64,000 bases of DNA from Escherichia coli. Lineage in GTDB: Bacteria > Pseudomonadota > Gammaproteobacteria > Enterobacterales > Enterobacteriaceae. A model generated the notes under the pieces. The model ran no database searches. It was not told the DNA's origin and was given only the letters and a program-made list of their open reading frames with translations. How positions within the stretch are numbered: the first letter of the stretch is position 1; each line of letters starts with the position of its first letter. The stretch lies in NCBI RefSeq assembly GCF_003018255.1, contig NZ_CP027440.1; one strand, 5' to 3'. The position numbers and the translations under genes are program-made. Below are positions 2,543 to 56,639 of the stretch, piece after piece.

Positions 2543-4060
2543 TTATTTCACCGGACGCATCGCCGGGAACAGAATAACGTCGCGGATGGTATGACTGTTG
2601 GTGAACAGCATTACCATACGGTCGATACCAATTCCCAGACCTGCTGTCGGCGGTAAGCCGTGTTCCAGTGCGGTGACGTAATCTTCGTCGTAGAACATCG
2701 CTTCGTCGTCACCTGCATCTTTCGCGGCAACCTGATCCAGGAAGCGCTGCGCCTGATCTTCCGCGTCATTCAGCTCGCTAAAGCCGTTACCGATTTCACG
2801 CCCACCAATGAAGAACTCAAAGCGGTCTGTGATTTCCGGGTTAACGTCGTTACGACGCGCCAGAGGAGAAACTTCTGCCGGATATTCAGTAATGAAGGTC
2901 GGCTGGATCAGATGTGCTTCTGCCACTTCTTCGAAGATCTCGGTAACGATACGGCCCAGACCCCAGCTCTTCTCAACGTGGATGCCGATAGATTCAGCAA
3001 TCGCTTTCGCAGAGTCGAAGTTGTCCAGATCCGCCATGTCGGTTTCCGGGCGATATTTCTTGATCGCTTCACGCATGGTCAGTTTTTCGAACGGTTTACC
3101 GAAGTCCAGCGTTACGTCGCCGTAGGTCACTTCCGTCTTACCGAGAATATCCTGTGCCAGAGTACGGAACAGCGATTCGGTCAGCTCGATCAGATCTTTG
3201 TAATCTGCGTAAGCCATATAGAGTTCCATCATGGTGAACTCTGGGTTATGACGTACGGAAATACCTTCGTTACGGAAGTTACGGTTGATTTCGAATACAC
3301 GCTCGAAGCCACCGACCACCAGACGCTTGAGGTACAGTTCCGGCGCGATACGCAGGTACATGTCGAGATCCAGCGCATTATGGTGGGTGATGAACGGACG
3401 CGCAGCGGCACCGCCAGGGATCACCTGCATCATCGGCGTTTCAACTTCCATAAAGCCGCGGTTCACCATGAACTGGCGAATACCAGAGAGGATCTGCGAG
3501 CGCACTTTAAAGGTGTTGCGGGATTCATCGTTAGAGATGAGATCCAGATAACGCTGACGATAGCGCGCTTCCTGATCCTGCAAGCCGTGGAATTTATCCG
3601 GCAGCGGACGCAGTGCTTTGGTCAGCAGACGCAGCTCGGTACAGTGGATAGACAGTTCGCCGGTTTTGGTTTTGAACAGTTTACCTTTCGCGCCGAGGAT
3701 ATCGCCGAGGTCCCATTTTTTGAACTGCTCGTTGTAAACGCCTTCCGGCAGATCGTCACGGGCAACGTACAGCTGAATGCGGCCCCCCACGTCCTGCAGG
3801 GTAACGAAAGACGCTTTACCCATAATACGACGGGTCATCATGCGGCCGGCAACGGCGACTTCGATGTTCAGCGCTTCCAGTTCTTCGTTCTCTTTACCGT
3901 CGAATTCTGCGTGCAATTGGTCAGAGGTATGATCGCGACGGAAATCGTTCGGGAAGGCAATCCCCTGCTCGCGCAGGTTCGCCAGCTTCTCACGACGCGT
4001 TTTCAGTTCATTGTTAAGATCGACTACCGCGTCAGCGCCCTGTGCGTGTTGTTCAGACAT
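2543..4060 (-). CDS. lysS: Lysyl-tRNA synthetase, constitutive (505 aa)
   Basis: ORF 2543-4060; class II aaRS sequence; start lies 10 nt downstream of the prfB stop, as in the prfB-lysS operon. Confidence 0.95.
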
Positions 4061-50780: not shown

Positions 50781-51701
50781 TTACTCGCCCTTTTTCGCCG
50801 CCTGAATATACAGCATCTCCAGCGCCAGCGTCGCCGCTGCCAGAGCGGTGATTTCCGACTGATCGTATGCCGGAGCCACCTCCACTACGTCCATCCCAAC
50901 GATGTTGAGATCTTTCAGGCCGCGTACCAGTTTAATGGCGCGATCGGAGGTCAGGCCGCCAATTACCGGCGTACCGGTGCCTGGTGCAAATGCAGGGTCC
51001 AGGCAATCGATATCAAAGGTCAGGTAAACCGGCATATCACCCACAATCTGTTTCACCTGGGCGATAACGTCATCCACGCTGCGATCGTTCACCTGGCAGG
51101 CGTCCAGCACGGTAAAGCCGTTGTCTTTATCAAACTCGGTACGAATACCAATCTGCACGGAATGATTCGGGTCGATCAGACCTTCTTTCGGCGCGGTATA
51201 GAACATGGTGCCGTGGTCAAATTCACAACCGTTCGCATAGGTATCGGTGTGGGCGTCAAAGTGTACCAGCGCCATTTTGCCGAAATGCTTCGCATGAGCA
51301 CGCAGCAGCGGCAGCGTAACAAAGTGGTCACCACCGAAGGAGAGCATACGCTTACCGGCAGCCAGCAGCTTCTCGGCGTGTGCCTGCAGCTTCTCGCTCA
51401 TCTCACGGGCATCGCCGAAGGCATATACCAGATCACCGCAGTCCACCACGTTCAGGCGCTCACGCATGTCGAAATTCCACGGGAAGCGGTTGTGTTCCCA
51501 GGCCAGATTCGTCGAAACCTGACGGATCGCTGCCGGACCGTGGCGCCCCCCCGCACGGCCAGAAGTGGCCATATCGAACGGCACGCCAGTAATCACCCAG
51601 TCAGCATCGCTGTCATACGGCTGGAAGTTCATCGGCAGGCGTAAAAAACCAAAGGCGTTGGAAACCAGTGAGTTATCGTATTGATGACCTAAGGTGCTCA
51701 T
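50781..51701 (-). CDS. speB: Agmatinase (306 aa)
   Basis: ORF 50781-51701; arginase-family metal-binding motifs; AGGAGT SD upstream. Confidence 0.9.
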
Positions 51702-51836: not shown

Positions 51837-52568
51837 CTATTTCCGACACGGTGGCGGCGCATAGCCATTGTTATCTGCCGGAAAGGCTTGTCCAGAGCAC
51901 GGCGGCAGCGCGTTTTGCGCCGGGCCTTGTAATTCAAAGGCGGCAAAGCCGATTACACCGGTATTACGCACATCGCCTTGCGCCGAATTGGCTGCGTAGG
52001 AATCAGCAACGTTGGCGAACTGAAAAGCCGCTTCGGTATGTTTATCTTTGCGGAATCCTTTAATCGCTAACGAATCTCCGGCATTCACAATATAGCCGTT
52101 GTTATTCAGCGAACCTTGCTTGCCGTTCAGCACATCCAGGCCATCAACCGTAGCAACGATCTCGTAGTTGGTGTTACGACTGTAATTGCGGACATATAAT
52201 TGATAATTCATTCCTACTCTGGCATGGACAATATAGCGTGGTTCATTATTTGACGAATCATAAACCCGCGTAATAGGTAGAGAATTAAAATTACCATCGC
52301 GAATAGCATATTCAAGTTCGTTAATACGAATGCTATAAACGCGGTCATAGCCGGAAGGAACAGTAGTCGAATAACTAATAACGATCATCTCTGCCGGATC
52401 GCGCCAAGCTCGCTCAGCAGATACGCCCTGAACCGTTGAGTGCACATCCCCACCCCAGGCGGTGCCGACATTGCCTGATGCACTGCTATTATACTGCGCA
52501 TTACTGGAACAACCGGCCAGCAGCACGGCTAATGCTATCAACGCGCTACGTACTTTCCCTTTTTTCAT
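51837..52568 (-). CDS. Lipoprotein of unknown function (243 aa)
   Basis: ORF 51837-52568; signal peptide with lipobox LLAG-C (MKKGKVRSALIALAVLLAGCSSN); GAGGGA SD upstream; Asn/Ser/Tyr/Gly-rich mature region with two C-terminal Cys; not at this position in K-12 as I recall. Confidence 0.75.
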   Translation of the reverse strand: MKKGKVRSALIALAVLLAGCSSNAQYNSSASGNVGTAWGGDVHSTVQGVSAERAWRDPAEMIVISYSTTVPSGYDRVYSIRINELEYAIRDGNFNSLPITRVYDSSNNEPRYIVHARVGMNYQLYVRNYSRNTNYEIVATVDGLDVLNGKQGSLNNNGYIVNAGDSLAIKGFRKDKHTEAAFQFANVADSYAANSAQGDVRNTGVIGFAAFELQGPAQNALPPCSGQAFPADNNGYAPPPCRK

Positions 52569-52713: not shown

Positions 52714-54690
52714 TTATTCATCTTCAAGATAGGTATAACCGTACAAACCTGCCTCGAACTCTTCAAGGAACTGTTGTTGCAGTTCAGCATCAAGATCGGT
52801 TTTCTTCACTTGATCACGGAACTGGGTTAACAACGTTTTCGGATCGAGCTGTACATATTGCAGCATATCCGCCACGGTATCGCCTTCGTCAGACAGTTCT
52901 ACTTCTACGCTGCCGTCAGGGAAGACGAACACGTCAACCGCTTCGGTATCACCGAACAGGTTGTGCATGTTGCCGAGGATCTCCTGATATGCGCCGACCA
53001 TGAAGAAACCGAGCATCGGCGGATTCTCTGGATCGTACTCCGGCATTGGCATTGTCGTGGCAATACCATCACCATCGATGTAGTGATCAATAGCACCGTC
53101 AGAATCACAGGTAATATCCAGCAGCACAGCGCGGCGCTCCGGCACTTGATCCAACCCTTCCAGCGGCAGAACCGGGAACAACTGGTCGATCCCCCATGCG
53201 TCCGGCATCGACTGGAACAGCGAGAAGTTGACGTACATTTTGTCAGCCATACGTTCCTGCAGCTCGTCGATAATCGGACGATGCGCACGGTTTTGCGGAT
53301 CCAGTTGCTTCTGCACTTCATGGCACATGCTCAGATAGAGTTGTTCTGCCCATGCACGTTCTTGCAGGCTAAAGGTGCCGGAAGAGTAGCCGATATGAAT
53401 ATCGTGCAGATCCATCTGGCTGTCGTGTAACCATTCACGCAGAGAACGACGAGTTCCCGGTTCGTGCATCTCCTGCCAGGTTTCCCACATGCTTTGCAGG
53501 GCGCGCGGTGCGTCTTCTGCAGGCGCGGTCGGCACCGTGTATTCGTTACGTTCCACGCCGATGATATTCGACACCAGCACGGTGTGATGCGCAGTCACCG
53601 CACGACCCGACTCGGTGATTACCGTCGGATGTGGCAGACCATTTTCTTCACACGCATCACCAATCGCCCAGATGATGTTGTTGGCGTATTCATTGAGGCC
53701 GTAGTTCACCGAACAGTCGGACTGCGAACGGGTGCCTTCATAGTCCACGCCCAGACCGCCGCCAACGTCGAAGCACTGAATATTGACGCCCAGCTTGTGC
53801 AGTTCCACATAGAAACGCGCGGATTCACGAACGCCTGTCGCGATATCGCGAATATTCGCCATCTGCGAACCGAGGTGGAAGTGCAGCAGTTGCAGGCTGT
53901 CGAGACGCCCGGCTTCACGCAGCGTTTCAACCAGTTGCAGTACCTGAGTCGCCGCCAGGCCGAACTTCGATTTTTCCCCGCCAGAGGACTGCCATTTACC
54001 CGAGCCCTGCGAAGCCAGACGTGCACGCACGCCCAGACGAGGAACGACATTCAGACGTTCTGCTTCATCCAGCACAATGGCAATTTCTGACATCTTCTCA
54101 ATGACCAGATAGACCTTGTGGCCCATCTTCTCGCCAATTAATGCCAGGCGGATATATTCGCGGTCCTTATAACCGTTGCAGACGATGACGCTACGGGTCA
54201 TGCCAGCATGTGCCAGCACCGCCATCAACTCCGCTTTGGAACCGGCTTCCAGGCCCAGCGGTTCGCCCGAATGAATCAGGGACTCAATCACGCGGCGGTG
54301 CTGGTTAACTTTGATCGGATAAACGAGGAAGTAATCGCCGTTATAGCCGTAGGATTCCCGCGCACGTTTGAACGCGGCGTTAATAGAACGCAAACGGTGC
54401 TGCAGGATCTGTGGGAAACAGAACAGTGCAGGCAGACGCTGGCCCTGTGCTTCACGAGTTTTCACTAACTGCGCGAGATCGACGCGAGCTTCCGGGACGT
54501 CCGGGTCCGGGCACACGCTAATGTGGCCCAGCTCGTTAACGTCATAGTAGTTATTGCCCCACCAGGCAATATTGTAAGTACGCAGCATCTTGCTGGCTTC
54601 CTGGGAGCTCATTGCAACCTCCTGCATGGAGCGTAGTACACCGTGTTCGCCCGCTGACGAAGGCAAACCCATAGACATGTCGTCAGACAT
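52714..54690 (-). CDS. speA: Biosynthetic arginine decarboxylase (658 aa)
   Basis: ORF 52714-54702 trimmed to [21 protein letters not shown]...; PLP-dependent fold-III decarboxylase. Confidence 0.95.
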
Positions 54691-54698
54691 AGCGAACC

Positions 54699-54830
54699 TC
54701 AAATTATTTTATTAAGTGTAAAACAGTTAACGACTATCGCAGCCTGGAACTGCGATAACAACCCATAAGCACATGGATTTTCCAGCAGTGAATGCTGACG
54801 CTCCAACTGCGCAATCGGTTTCTTTTTCAT
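54699..54830 (-). CDS. yqgB: Small upstream ORF YqgB (43 aa)
   Basis: Read from sequence on the - strand: [43 protein letters not shown]; its stop lies 8 nt before the speA ATG. Confidence 0.5.
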
Positions 54831-54965
54831 AACATTATTAAGCACATAACCGAACGTAAGTGTGACAGTTCGGCGAAACCACGAGAAAACTCTTGTTTTT
54901 ACAAGAGCGCCCTTGTTCAGTCCTCAGTAGCTGTAACCAGCTCTTGAATCCTGAGAAGCGCCGAG

Positions 54966-55181
54966 ATGGGTATAACATCGGCAGGTATGCAAAGCAGAGA
55001 TGCAGAGTGCGGGGAACGAATCTTCACCAGAACGGTGAGACAGGTTAAGCAGCAGACAACGGTTCATTATTTCGTATCACCTCCACGGCCGCCTGTTAAG
55101 ACGAACCCACAAGCCAAAACTCTGTTTTCAACCCGGCTGGAAGTGGCAACACGAAAGAAACGTCGTGTGCTTTTTATTTAA
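54966..55181 (+). CDS. yqgC: Small ORF, YqgC-like (71 aa), doubtful
   Basis: ORF-track entry in the speA-metK spacer matching the position and size of a K-12 hypothetical; no other support. Confidence 0.25.
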
Positions 55182-55444
55182 GCCGCGCGCCGCGTTTTAT
55201 ACCCCACAATGGCAGAAAATTGCAAAAGATAAATACGCAGAATGCCAGCATTGTCAGGAAAAATTTCCAGCCACGTTTTTAACAGAATGAGACACAATTC
55301 AAAAAAAAGTGGAAATCGGGTGAAGAATTGACCTAAAATAGCCATCCAGATGTTAATCCATCCATACCGATTAACACTCAGACTGCCAGTGTTTTTAACC
55401 TGCAGAGTCGTGGTAGGATCCGCTACCACAGAAAATCCACACAA
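55178..55444 (-). CDS. yqgD: Small ORF, YqgD-like, doubtful; start uncertain
   Basis: ORF-track entry in the speA-metK spacer matching the position of a K-12 hypothetical; no other support. Confidence 0.25.
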
Positions 55445-55484
55445 CAGTTTGAGCTAACCAAATTCTCTTTAGGTGATATTAAAT

Positions 55485-56639
55485 ATGGCAAAACACCTTT
55501 TTACGTCCGAGTCCGTCTCTGAAGGGCATCCTGACAAAATTGCTGACCAAATCTCTGATGCCGTTTTAGACGCGATCCTCGAACAGGATCCGAAAGCACG
55601 CGTTGCTTGCGAAACCTACGTAAAAACCGGCATGGTTTTAGTTGGCGGCGAAATCACCACCAGCGCCTGGGTAGACATCGAAGAGATCACCCGTAACACC
55701 GTTCGCGAAATTGGCTATGTGCATTCCGACATGGGCTTTGACGCTAATTCCTGTGCGGTTCTGAGCGCTATCGGCAAACAGTCTCCTGACATCAACCAGG
55801 GCGTTGACCGTGCCGATCCGCTGGAACAGGGCGCGGGTGACCAGGGTCTGATGTTTGGCTACGCAACCAATGAAACCGACGTGCTGATGCCAGCGCCTAT
55901 CACCTATGCACACCGTCTGGTACAGCGTCAGGCTGAAGTGCGTAAAAACGGCACTCTGCCGTGGCTGCGCCCGGACGCGAAAAGCCAGGTGACTTTCCAG
56001 TATGACGACGGCAAAATCGTTGGCATTGATGCTGTCGTGCTTTCCACTCAGCACTCTGAAGAGATCGACCAGAAATCGCTGCAAGAAGCGGTAATGGAAG
56101 AGATCATCAAGCCGATTCTGCCCGCTGAATGGCTGACTTCTGCCACCAAATTCTTCATCAACCCGACCGGTCGTTTCGTTATCGGTGGCCCGATGGGTGA
56201 CTGCGGTCTGACTGGTCGTAAAATCATCGTTGATACCTACGGCGGCATGGCGCGTCATGGTGGCGGTGCGTTCTCCGGTAAAGATCCATCAAAAGTGGAC
56301 CGTTCCGCAGCCTACGCAGCACGTTATGTCGCGAAAAACATTGTTGCTGCTGGCCTGGCCGATCGTTGTGAAATTCAGGTTTCCTACGCAATCGGCGTGG
56401 CTGAACCGACTTCCATCATGGTAGAAACTTTCGGTACTGAGAAAGTGCCTTCTGAACAACTGACTCTGCTGGTACGTGAGTTCTTTGACCTGCGTCCATA
56501 CGGTCTGATTCAGATGCTGGATCTGCTGCACCCGATCTACAAAGAAACCGCAGCATACGGTCACTTTGGTCGCGAACATTTCCCGTGGGAAAAAACCGAC
56601 AAAGCGCAGCTGCTGCGCGATGCTGCCGGTCTGAAGTAA
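55485..56639 (+). CDS. metK: S-adenosylmethionine synthetase (384 aa)
   Basis: ORF 55473-56639 trimmed to [18 protein letters not shown]... Confidence 0.95.

Follow-up and report, generated by a model that had tools for sequence, protein, structure and literature searches.

The gene speA of Escherichia coli is directly preceded by a short open reading frame (ORF), yqgB, and the locus raises the question of whether this ORF exists for the protein that it encodes or for the gene that follows it. It was studied in a stretch of 64,000 nucleotides of E. coli DNA (contig NZ_CP027440.1), referred to as the window, to which all positions refer unless stated otherwise. The arginine-to-putrescine route is entered through speA, a gene that polyamines have for decades been known to repress; we know of no mechanism for this repression. 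The evidence presented below makes it rather likely that yqgB is a cis-acting regulatory upstream ORF (uORF) of speA(B) and does not act through its protein.

On the minus strand of the window, yqgB is read from an ATG at 54830-54828 to a TGA at 54701-54699, with 43 sense codons between them. Eight nucleotides, GGTTCGCT (54698-54691), separate this stop codon from the ATG of speA (54690-54688). The stop codon overlaps the Shine-Dalgarno (SD) sequence of speA in the arrangement T-GAGG, where GAGG occupies 54700-54697. The first-pass annotation of this DNA had described the ORF, its peptide and the spacing of 8 nt exactly so, and had also named it correctly. The ORF is annotated as yqgB, 'acid stress response protein YqgB', in all 12 E. 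coli records listed across the ranking, with speA downstream and yqgG, yqgD and metK upstream. Its K-12 counterpart is b2939, and the peptide is 98% identical to the K-12 protein and the E. coli YqgB cluster. The Pfam family PF11036 ('YqgB, virulence promoting factor') matches it with 111.4 bits (cut-off 24) over positions 1-43 of 43. At 95% identity or more, the 1.1-kb region containing yqgB was matched in 5,425 of 5,426 complete E. coli genomes. The gene was thus already known, and a uORF role had been proposed before the present analysis. Hemm et al. reportedly detected a tagged YqgB protein (2008) and later described an acid phenotype (2010). The size of the ORF alone is within chance, as 85 ORFs of at least 20 amino acids occur in the same stretch of 5.5 kb; the ORF listing gives the frame as a 48-residue ORF with a GTG start (54699-54845). 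yqgB is considered real because of the comparative evidence, the open frame found in 79 of 79 sequences, and not because of its length.

For this comparison, 80 speA loci, one per species across Enterobacteriaceae, were retrieved. Because SpeA served as the query, the retrieval was blind to yqgB. The 78 loci with enough upstream DNA, together with the window, made up the comparison set (n = 79). All loci, obtained in a single scan, belong to Enterobacteriaceae; Yersinia, Serratia and Erwinia lie outside the sample. In the window, yqgB is on the same strand as speA and directly upstream of it, downstream of yqgG and divergent from metK, and the yqgB-speA arrangement is repeated in the 78 loci of other Enterobacteriaceae. 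In all 79 sequences the yqgB frame is open, from a conserved ATG that lacks an SD sequence and begins a peptide M-[K/N]-x-K-P. The yqgB frame contains no stop codon in any sequence; the other two frames contain 3.6 and 2.5 stops on average and are open in 0 and 1 of the 79 sequences. When only the freely varying part was shuffled, a single sequence kept its frame open with a median probability of 0.32, and the long versions with one of 0.08-0.25. If an open frame is selected for in every sequence, yqgB would have to be translated. A profile search for YqgB gave no credible match outside Enterobacteriaceae among the best 120 of 162 matches, and the element appears to be restricted to this family. 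Two assemblies labelled 'Chryseobacterium sp. 18061' and 'Vagococcus sp. WN89Y' (locus L030, CACSKA010000005.1, and protein P0112) carry a typical Enterobacteriaceae speA/yqgB and are probably mislabelled or contaminated.

The uORF ends at exactly two positions: a TGA at -11..-9 relative to speA in 57 sequences, and a TGA at +6..+8 in the other 22. Both positions lie within 11 nt of the first speA start codon (AUG1) in 79/79. The 22 species that use the second stop have the yqgB frame shifted by +1 and read through GAG GTT CGC TAT GTC TGA, the TGA overlapping speA codons 2-3. The triplet at +6..+8 is present in every sequence, that at -11..-9 in 77, and the SD region of speA, TGAGGTTCGCTATG, is almost invariant. 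In none of the 79 sequences does the uORF end in the frame of speA. The length of yqgB ranges from 38 to 91 codons, and at least 8 independent switches between the two stop frames are estimated to have occurred. No property of yqgB is more conserved than where its stop codon lies with respect to the start of speA. The suggestion that the spacing allows translational coupling is hence strongly reinforced as far as its geometry is concerned, as only two stop positions are used by the whole set. An apparent group of 22 loci without the ORF proved to be an artefact of a filter (ATG only, at least 25 amino acids, stop no later than +4); their ORFs end at the TGA at +6..+8. An antizyme-like programmed frameshift into speA was also rejected: the +1 frame ends five codons further on at the second TGA, the uORF never uses the speA frame, and no slippery site was seen.

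Individual variants follow the same rule. In one E. coli and one Shigella protein, internal frameshifts are compensated so that the frame again has 43 codons, and in one Salmonella variant yqgB has switched to the second stop. In two Enterobacter-like genomes (L048:2844-2972 and L063:2846-2970), a dispersed repeat of about 127 nt is inserted inside yqgB. The insert stays open in the yqgB frame only and would be translated through in frame; since 127 = 3 × 42 + 1, it shifts the frame from the first to the second stop. About ten other loci contain copies of the repeat at unrelated positions. Copies were noted at ~2388-2514 in L007/L009, and at ~2267-2393 and 2640-2723 (reverse) in L038/L043; in Citrobacter and Enterobacter they lie in other parts of the speA leader or upstream of it, and the yqgG frame of L038 and L043 is changed by a copy. 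The repeat is presumably an enterobacterial repetitive intergenic consensus (ERIC), or intergenic repeat unit (IRU).

Conservation of the frame does not extend to the amino-acid sequence. Codons were compared at 39 gaplessly aligned positions in 71 distinct yqgB sequences. The entropies at codon positions 1/2/3 were 0.54/0.60/0.56, compared with 0.075/0.025/0.885 for speA in the same genomes. The ratio of nonsynonymous to synonymous polymorphism (pN/pS) was 0.87 in the yqgB frame and 0.032 in speA; the two wrong frames gave 0.86 and 0.67, and the 14 variable yqgB codons 1.14. Purifying selection of the type seen in proteins was thus absent from yqgB in this comparison, the in-frame ratio being no better than its out-of-frame controls. 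In the conserved codons, pS was 0.138 versus 0.506 for speA, far lower, and their synonymous sites are therefore constrained. GGG TTG TTA TCG and GCG ATA are invariant at all three codon positions in 69-71 of the 71 distinct sequences, and these two blocks make up the arms of a 12-bp stem inside yqgB. The C-terminal tails vary in sequence, frame and length, with 4-50 residues after the core. The first-pass annotation had named codon-level conservation as one check to be made: no amino-acid-level signal was found, and conservation of the ORF as such is very strong. These patterns indicate that selection acts on the translation of yqgB up to the ribosome-binding site (RBS) of speA and not on the peptide sequence. 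They also suggest that the PF11036 family largely reflects conservation of RNA stems that happen to be read in one frame.

The 5' untranslated region of speA was cloned by Adams et al. (2021, PMC7815308) from GCGCGGCTTAAATAAAAAGC (window position 55188) to just before the ATG. A 5' end at 55188 gives a leader of 498 nt that contains both yqgG and yqgB. Conservation across genera extends over the promoter block (TTGCAA, 18 nt, TATAAA) and the greater part of the leader. For the first uORF, yqgG, the protein carrying a sequential peptide affinity (SPA) tag was detected (10.1101/511675). Across genomes it encodes 43-64 amino acids with a shared sequence motif. The near-perfect SD of yqgG, GGAGGTGA, is present in 77 of the 79 genomes, and in 76 of these it stands at a fixed distance of 9 nt from the ATG. 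Its stop codon lies 1-19 nt before a terminator-like hairpin with a U-tract in most genomes. Compensatory changes in this hairpin include the replacement of a U-A by a C-G pair in 12 sequences; the supplement of Adams et al. lists no Term-seq 3' end at 54879-54908 (PMC7815308). This is the only terminator-like hairpin, and it stands upstream of yqgB. Classical attenuation of the trpL or hisL type is not indicated, as there is no terminator-like site between yqgB and speA; nor is attenuation through arginine codons, as neither uORF has a run of regulatory codons and yqgB has a single arginine codon. The yqgG RNA (~54940-55059, minus strand) is C-rich and G-poor, with a plus-strand guanine-cytosine skew of about +0.3, and is a candidate Rho utilization (rut) region that translation of yqgG would mask.

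In an alignment of 65 sequences, the named leader structure was 99.1% paired, versus 31-51% when the partners were slid, and its covariation exceeded that of all 500 shuffles. True compensatory pairs were found only in the terminator-like and CCGAAC/GUUCGG hairpins, the other helices being invariant or changed to G-U only. The 12-bp stem inside yqgB encodes the 'conserved' residues G-L-L-S and A-I-V-V-N, and its changes are one-sided and of the G-U type only. No covariance model of Rfam 15 matched positions 54000-56000 on either strand at an expect value of 1 or less. No SD-like 4-mer was found at -18..-4 of the yqgB AUG in any of the 79 sequences. The RNA around this AUG is AU-rich and is followed by AAnAAGAAACC. 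Among the four starts, that of yqgB needs the least energy for opening (a median of 7.3 kcal/mol, and 3.7 in the window). At this start, 63 of the 79 genomes have an overlapping two-codon mini-ORF, ATG-NTA-TGA (ATGnTATGA), which lies at 54826-54835 of the minus strand in the window. Nearer the 5' end of the leader, a hairpin GCACACGACG...CGTGTTG (~55120-55175, minus strand) displays compensatory changes across genera and is followed by a near-invariant block, CCACUUCCAGCCGGG. An internal speA promoter in yqgB was considered as the cause of the conservation and rejected as such: there is one 9/12 match (54730-54703), whose -10 region is not conserved, and the 3 promoter-like matches compare with 1.5 ± 1.4 expected from shuffling.

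speA is translated from two starts. AUG1 gives SpeA-74 and Met-27 the short isoform SpeA-70, as observed by Ribo-RET and N-terminomics (10.1101/520783, PMC13245402); a Ribo-RET peak is present at AUG1, the primary start site (10.1101/520783), and N-terminal peptides of the long form were detected (PMC13245402). In the predicted stem around AUG1, the 5' arm consists of the last G of the SD, the spacer UUCGCU, the UG of AUG1 and CUGACGA (codons 2-4), and the 3' arm is UCGUCAG...GGCGAAC at speA +30..+46. This stem is also present in the RNAalifold consensus of the alignment. The third positions of speA codons 2-4, 10-12, 14 and 17-19 are near-invariant (entropy of 0.17 or less, versus ~0.9 elsewhere in speA). 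The AUG1 stem is a candidate explanation for the raised conservation of synonymous sites that Meydan et al. observed at the 5' end of speA without settling on a cause (10.1101/520783). Changes in its arms are compatible with G-U pairing, including a non-synonymous Glu to Gly replacement that keeps the pair.

The leader is sensitive to the termination factor Rho. With reporter fusions and northern blots, Adams et al. (2021, PMC7815308) showed that Rho terminates speA transcription prematurely. Their Supplementary file 3 lists a Rho-dependent Term-seq 3' end at K-12 position 3085854, which is speA +58, with a Rho score of 3.09, 'Yes' and 'uORF', and yqgB-speA is among the nine candidate uORF-regulated pairs of that study. 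The 3' end falls just beyond the AUG1 stem, as would be expected if the stem blocked 3' trimming.

The following mechanism is proposed, in which yqgB is the second of two uORFs in a structured, Rho-sensitive speA(B) leader of ~498 nt. A ribosome starting at the accessible, SD-less AUG of yqgB would be carried to within 8-11 nt of AUG1, whatever peptide is made. On terminating, it would melt the 5' arm of the AUG1 stem, with the spacer, AUG1 and codons 2-4, and could then re-initiate at AUG1, which lies 8 nt downstream of the first stop or 8 nt back from the second. Ribosomes covering the leader and early speA would prevent Rho from loading and terminating. Translation of yqgB would thereby favour speA(B) expression in cis, specifically by supplying the long SpeA proteoform. 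Because Met-27 has a strong SD of its own (GGAGG), yqgB would mainly control the long isoform and the polarity of the transcript. Initiation at yqgB is probably the regulated step, since its AUG lacks an SD and may be enclosed by the invariant GGUUUC/GAAACC helix. The model builds on a leader extent, a Rho dependence and a pair of isoforms established in the literature, where lower speA/speB expression upon deletion of yqgB is also documented, and it fits the Rho data and the lower speA/speB mRNA of that Salmonella deletion. The present comparison shows the conserved ORF and stop position, the lack of peptide-level selection and the nucleotide-level constraint that forms stems; that ribosomes re-initiate, that the effect is positive and that polyamines have any input is our inference.

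Several observations weigh against this mechanism. The yqgB start codon was detected in vitro by INRI-seq and was not detectable in vivo by Ribo-RET (PMC9825163). As Ribo-RET did detect AUG1 in vivo and not the yqgB start, AUG1 is probably also reached directly. The AUG1 stem shows no compensatory covariation in the alignment: 11 of its 16 pairs are invariant and the rest have one-sided G-U changes. Its z-score is modest (-1.81), with 9 of 200 shuffles folding as well. The median opening energy is 11.1 kcal/mol at AUG1, 10.7 at the internal start and 12.6 at random speA positions; the unmasking step is weakened because AUG1 is no harder to open than the internal start or controls in the coding sequence. 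The stem thus remains a plausible, predicted block that translation of yqgB may open. The Salmonella deletion removes leader RNA and possibly the SD context, so that it does not isolate the effect of translation. Finally, the codons for Ala7, His13, Val33 and Val34 vary synonymously only; because of these few codons, a weak residual constraint on the peptide, at the N-terminus or in the hydrophobic core, is possible.

The alternatives can be judged largely from the same data. That YqgB is a small protein acting in trans, the 'acid stress response protein' or 'virulence promoting factor' of its annotations, and adjoins speA by operon packing alone is unlikely. It has in its favour the RefSeq annotation, the existence of a Pfam family, the tagged protein and acid phenotype reportedly described by Hemm et al., the few codons with synonymous variation only, and a report of ranitidine binding to purified YqgB by surface plasmon resonance together with pleiotropic deletion phenotypes (PMC13159126). 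The pN/pS ratio, however, equals that of out-of-frame controls and is close to 1 where codons vary, the residues that are conserved fall on RNA stems with invariant synonymous sites, and the C-termini have been frameshifted, replaced or extended by 5-48 residues, in some cases by a translated repeat element. The phenotypes, moreover, track the output of speA/speB and the supply of polyamines. In Salmonella, deletion of yqgB lowered speA and speB mRNA, arginine decarboxylase and spermidine, and the phenotype was relieved by arginine, putrescine or spermidine (2026, PMC13159126). The deletion was made by allelic exchange, no mention of complementation was found in that paper, and lower expression of speAB in cis accounts for the phenotypes equally well. 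When overexpressed in a screen for arrest peptides, YqgB elicited heat-shock responses of the aggregation type and not the cold-shock-like responses typical of arrest (PMC11890864), which also speaks against a small protein acting in trans.

The same screen bears on the idea of YqgB as an arrest or leader peptide that senses a metabolite, in the manner of SpeFL, MdtU or TnaC, and whose stalling would control Rho access or speA initiation. Leader-peptide-type control had been put forward in the first-pass annotation; as a sensor or arrest peptide it finds no support, given the pN/pS of 0.87, the variable, frameshifted C-termini and the aggregation-type response, and we hold it to be very unlikely. 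The setting would suit such a peptide: speA is a polyamine gene, its leader is long, a Rho-dependent 3' end follows closely, and the pathway offers precedents (PMC7815308). But there is no conserved C-terminal motif, the last 4-50 residues vary freely and change frame, neither peptide-level selection nor a run of regulatory codons is seen, and YqgB clusters with the aggregation-type responses (PMC11890864). A repressive uORF is quite improbable. Here, ribosomes at the UGA over the speA SD would occlude the RBS and lower the use of AUG1, and the stop codon does lie within the SD footprint. Polyamines stimulate initiation at poor RBSs, so that negative feedback would result if yqgB were inhibitory. 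Occlusion by closely spaced upstream RBSs or uORFs has been described (PMC13285730), but deletion of yqgB lowers and does not raise speA/speB mRNA and enzyme (PMC13159126), the stop lies downstream of AUG1 and off the SD in 22 species, and yqgB is apparently translated too weakly for efficient occlusion. It is extremely improbable, lastly, that translation is irrelevant and the open frame a by-product of RNA or DNA conservation, through structure or an internal promoter. Much of yqgB is constrained at the nucleotide level and one promoter-like match exists; yet the neutral codons and inserted tails are free of stops only in the yqgB frame and in every lineage, the promoter-like matches are within shuffle expectation with a putative -10 that is not conserved, and initiation at the yqgB AUG was seen in vitro (PMC9825163). 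With several dozen distinct lineages all open, a by-product of sequence conservation is in effect impossible. A positively acting, translated uORF therefore remains the preferred reading of yqgB.

Coordinates of yqgB, speA and the features of the speA leader in the window
Feature	Position	Strand	Remarks
speA leader promoter and 5' end	55188..55225	minus	-35 TTGCAA 55225-55220, -10 TATAAA 55201-55196
yqgG, uORF1, 47 codons	54924..55067	minus	PF23505; SD GGAGGTGAT at 55084-55076
Terminator-like hairpin and U-tract between yqgG and yqgB	54879..54908	minus	compensatory changes in 5 pairs
GGUUUC/GAAACC helix enclosing the yqgB AUG, predicted	54817..54880	minus	invariant
CCGAAC/GUUCGG hairpin inside that helix, upstream of the yqgB AUG	54873-54850	minus	3 pairs changed on both sides
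yqgB, uORF2 of the speA leader	54699..54830	minus	43 codons and TGA; from sequence, annotation, PF11036 and open frame in 79/79
Small CAGC/GCUG hairpin, yqgB codons 12-16	54783..54797	minus	from folds and consensus
12-bp stem inside yqgB, GGUUGUUAUCGC / GCGAUAG..UAACU	54725..54763	minus	
speA SD GAGG	54697..54700	minus	6-nt spacer to ATG; overlapped by the yqgB stop
AUG1 stem, predicted	54645..54697	minus	minimum free energy -21.2 kcal/mol; same in 66-, 121- and 320-nt folds
speA, biosynthetic arginine decarboxylase	52714..54690	minus	658 codons from AUG1
speA AUG1	54688..54690	minus	start of the long proteoform SpeA-74 / SpeA-L
Alternative uORF stop TGA, speA +6..+8 (in ATG TCT GAC)	54683..54685	minus	used by 22/79 species
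Position matching the Rho-dependent 3' end (speA +58)	54633	minus	12 nt 3' of the AUG1 stem
Internal speA start Met-27	54610..54622	minus	ATG 54612-54610, SD GGAGG 54622-54618

Some neighbouring annotations deserve a remark. The annotated ORF yqgD (55178-55444, minus strand) overlaps the leader promoter and ends at the 5' end of the leader, and yqgC (b2940, plus strand) is antisense to yqgG. For K-12 yqgC, Weaver et al. found neither ribosome density nor tagged protein (10.1101/511675). Both annotations look doubtful. Between speA and speB (50781-51701), the window contains an ORF of 243 amino acids (51837-52568, minus strand) with a lipoprotein-like signal peptide, MKKGKVRSALIALAVLLAGCSS...; it is a hypothetical protein in E. 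coli strain 104, and in K-12 speA and speB are adjacent without such a gene.

The evolutionary signal, with a peptide sequence nearly free to drift, calls into question the label 'acid stress response protein' and the recent proposal of YqgB as a drug target (PMC13159126). A leader that is conserved throughout the family, is sensitive to Rho and combines covarying hairpins with two translated uORFs would constitute a concrete, testable regulatory device. The result gives a direct handle on the regulation of speA, although it would not astonish specialists. A more general lesson is that RNA stems read in frame can pass for a conserved small-protein family. The window ORF matches PF11036 and the NCBI YqgB family end to end; the family name implies a protein function, whereas the evolutionary pattern suggests RNA stems. 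A wider claim is offered tentatively, and we regard it as short of probable: PF11036 would not be a functional protein family but the translated part of a Rho-gated cis device for speA(B), ~500 nt long with two uORFs, which would set the output of long versus short SpeA and possibly serve as the long-sought site of polyamine feedback. If that were so, the acid-stress, virulence and colistin-sensitisation phenotypes ascribed to the YqgB protein, and the drug-target claim, would come down to cis effects on speAB expression.

Translationally coupled uORFs are said to be known in E. coli from uof-fur (Vecerek, Moll and Blasi, 2007). In Pseudomonas, uof-pqsR is a coupled uORF activated by PhrS (PMC8395346). 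Like these, yqgB is a short leader uORF that ends at or next to the main RBS and precedes an initiation region that is predicted to be structured; translation of the uORF and not its peptide would matter, and its initiation would be the regulated step. It differs in that the coupling of yqgB to speA is presumed, with no known small RNA or other regulator of yqgB initiation, and in that speA has a second, independent internal start and a leader that also contains yqgG and is subject to Rho.

Within polyamine metabolism, MdtU-mdtJI is under spermidine- and Rho-dependent uORF control (PMC7815308). It shares with yqgB-speA the pathway, a long leader, a validated small ORF and a Rho-dependent 3' end inside or before the main ORF, and the same Term-seq screen flagged yqgB-speA (PMC7815308). 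The mdtU stop, however, is 106 nt upstream of mdtJ, which offers no direct coupling geometry, and the C-terminus of MdtU is conserved as a peptide, unlike that of YqgB. SpeFL-speF, as far as the account cited in PMC7815308 goes (Herrero del Valle et al. 2020), relies on an ornithine-sensing arrest peptide; on that account it resembles yqgB-speA as a leader ORF before a decarboxylase gene of polyamine biosynthesis, with Rho-dependent polarity as the output, and differs in that the conserved SpeFL peptide binds ornithine in the exit tunnel, whereas YqgB has neither peptide-level selection nor a signature of arrest. What is new here is the comparative indication of selection on translation and stop position instead of the peptide, together with the two-stop architecture and the conserved leader structure, and with these properties yqgB joins uof-fur and uof-pqsR, as an unproven member, in the class of translationally coupled uORFs.

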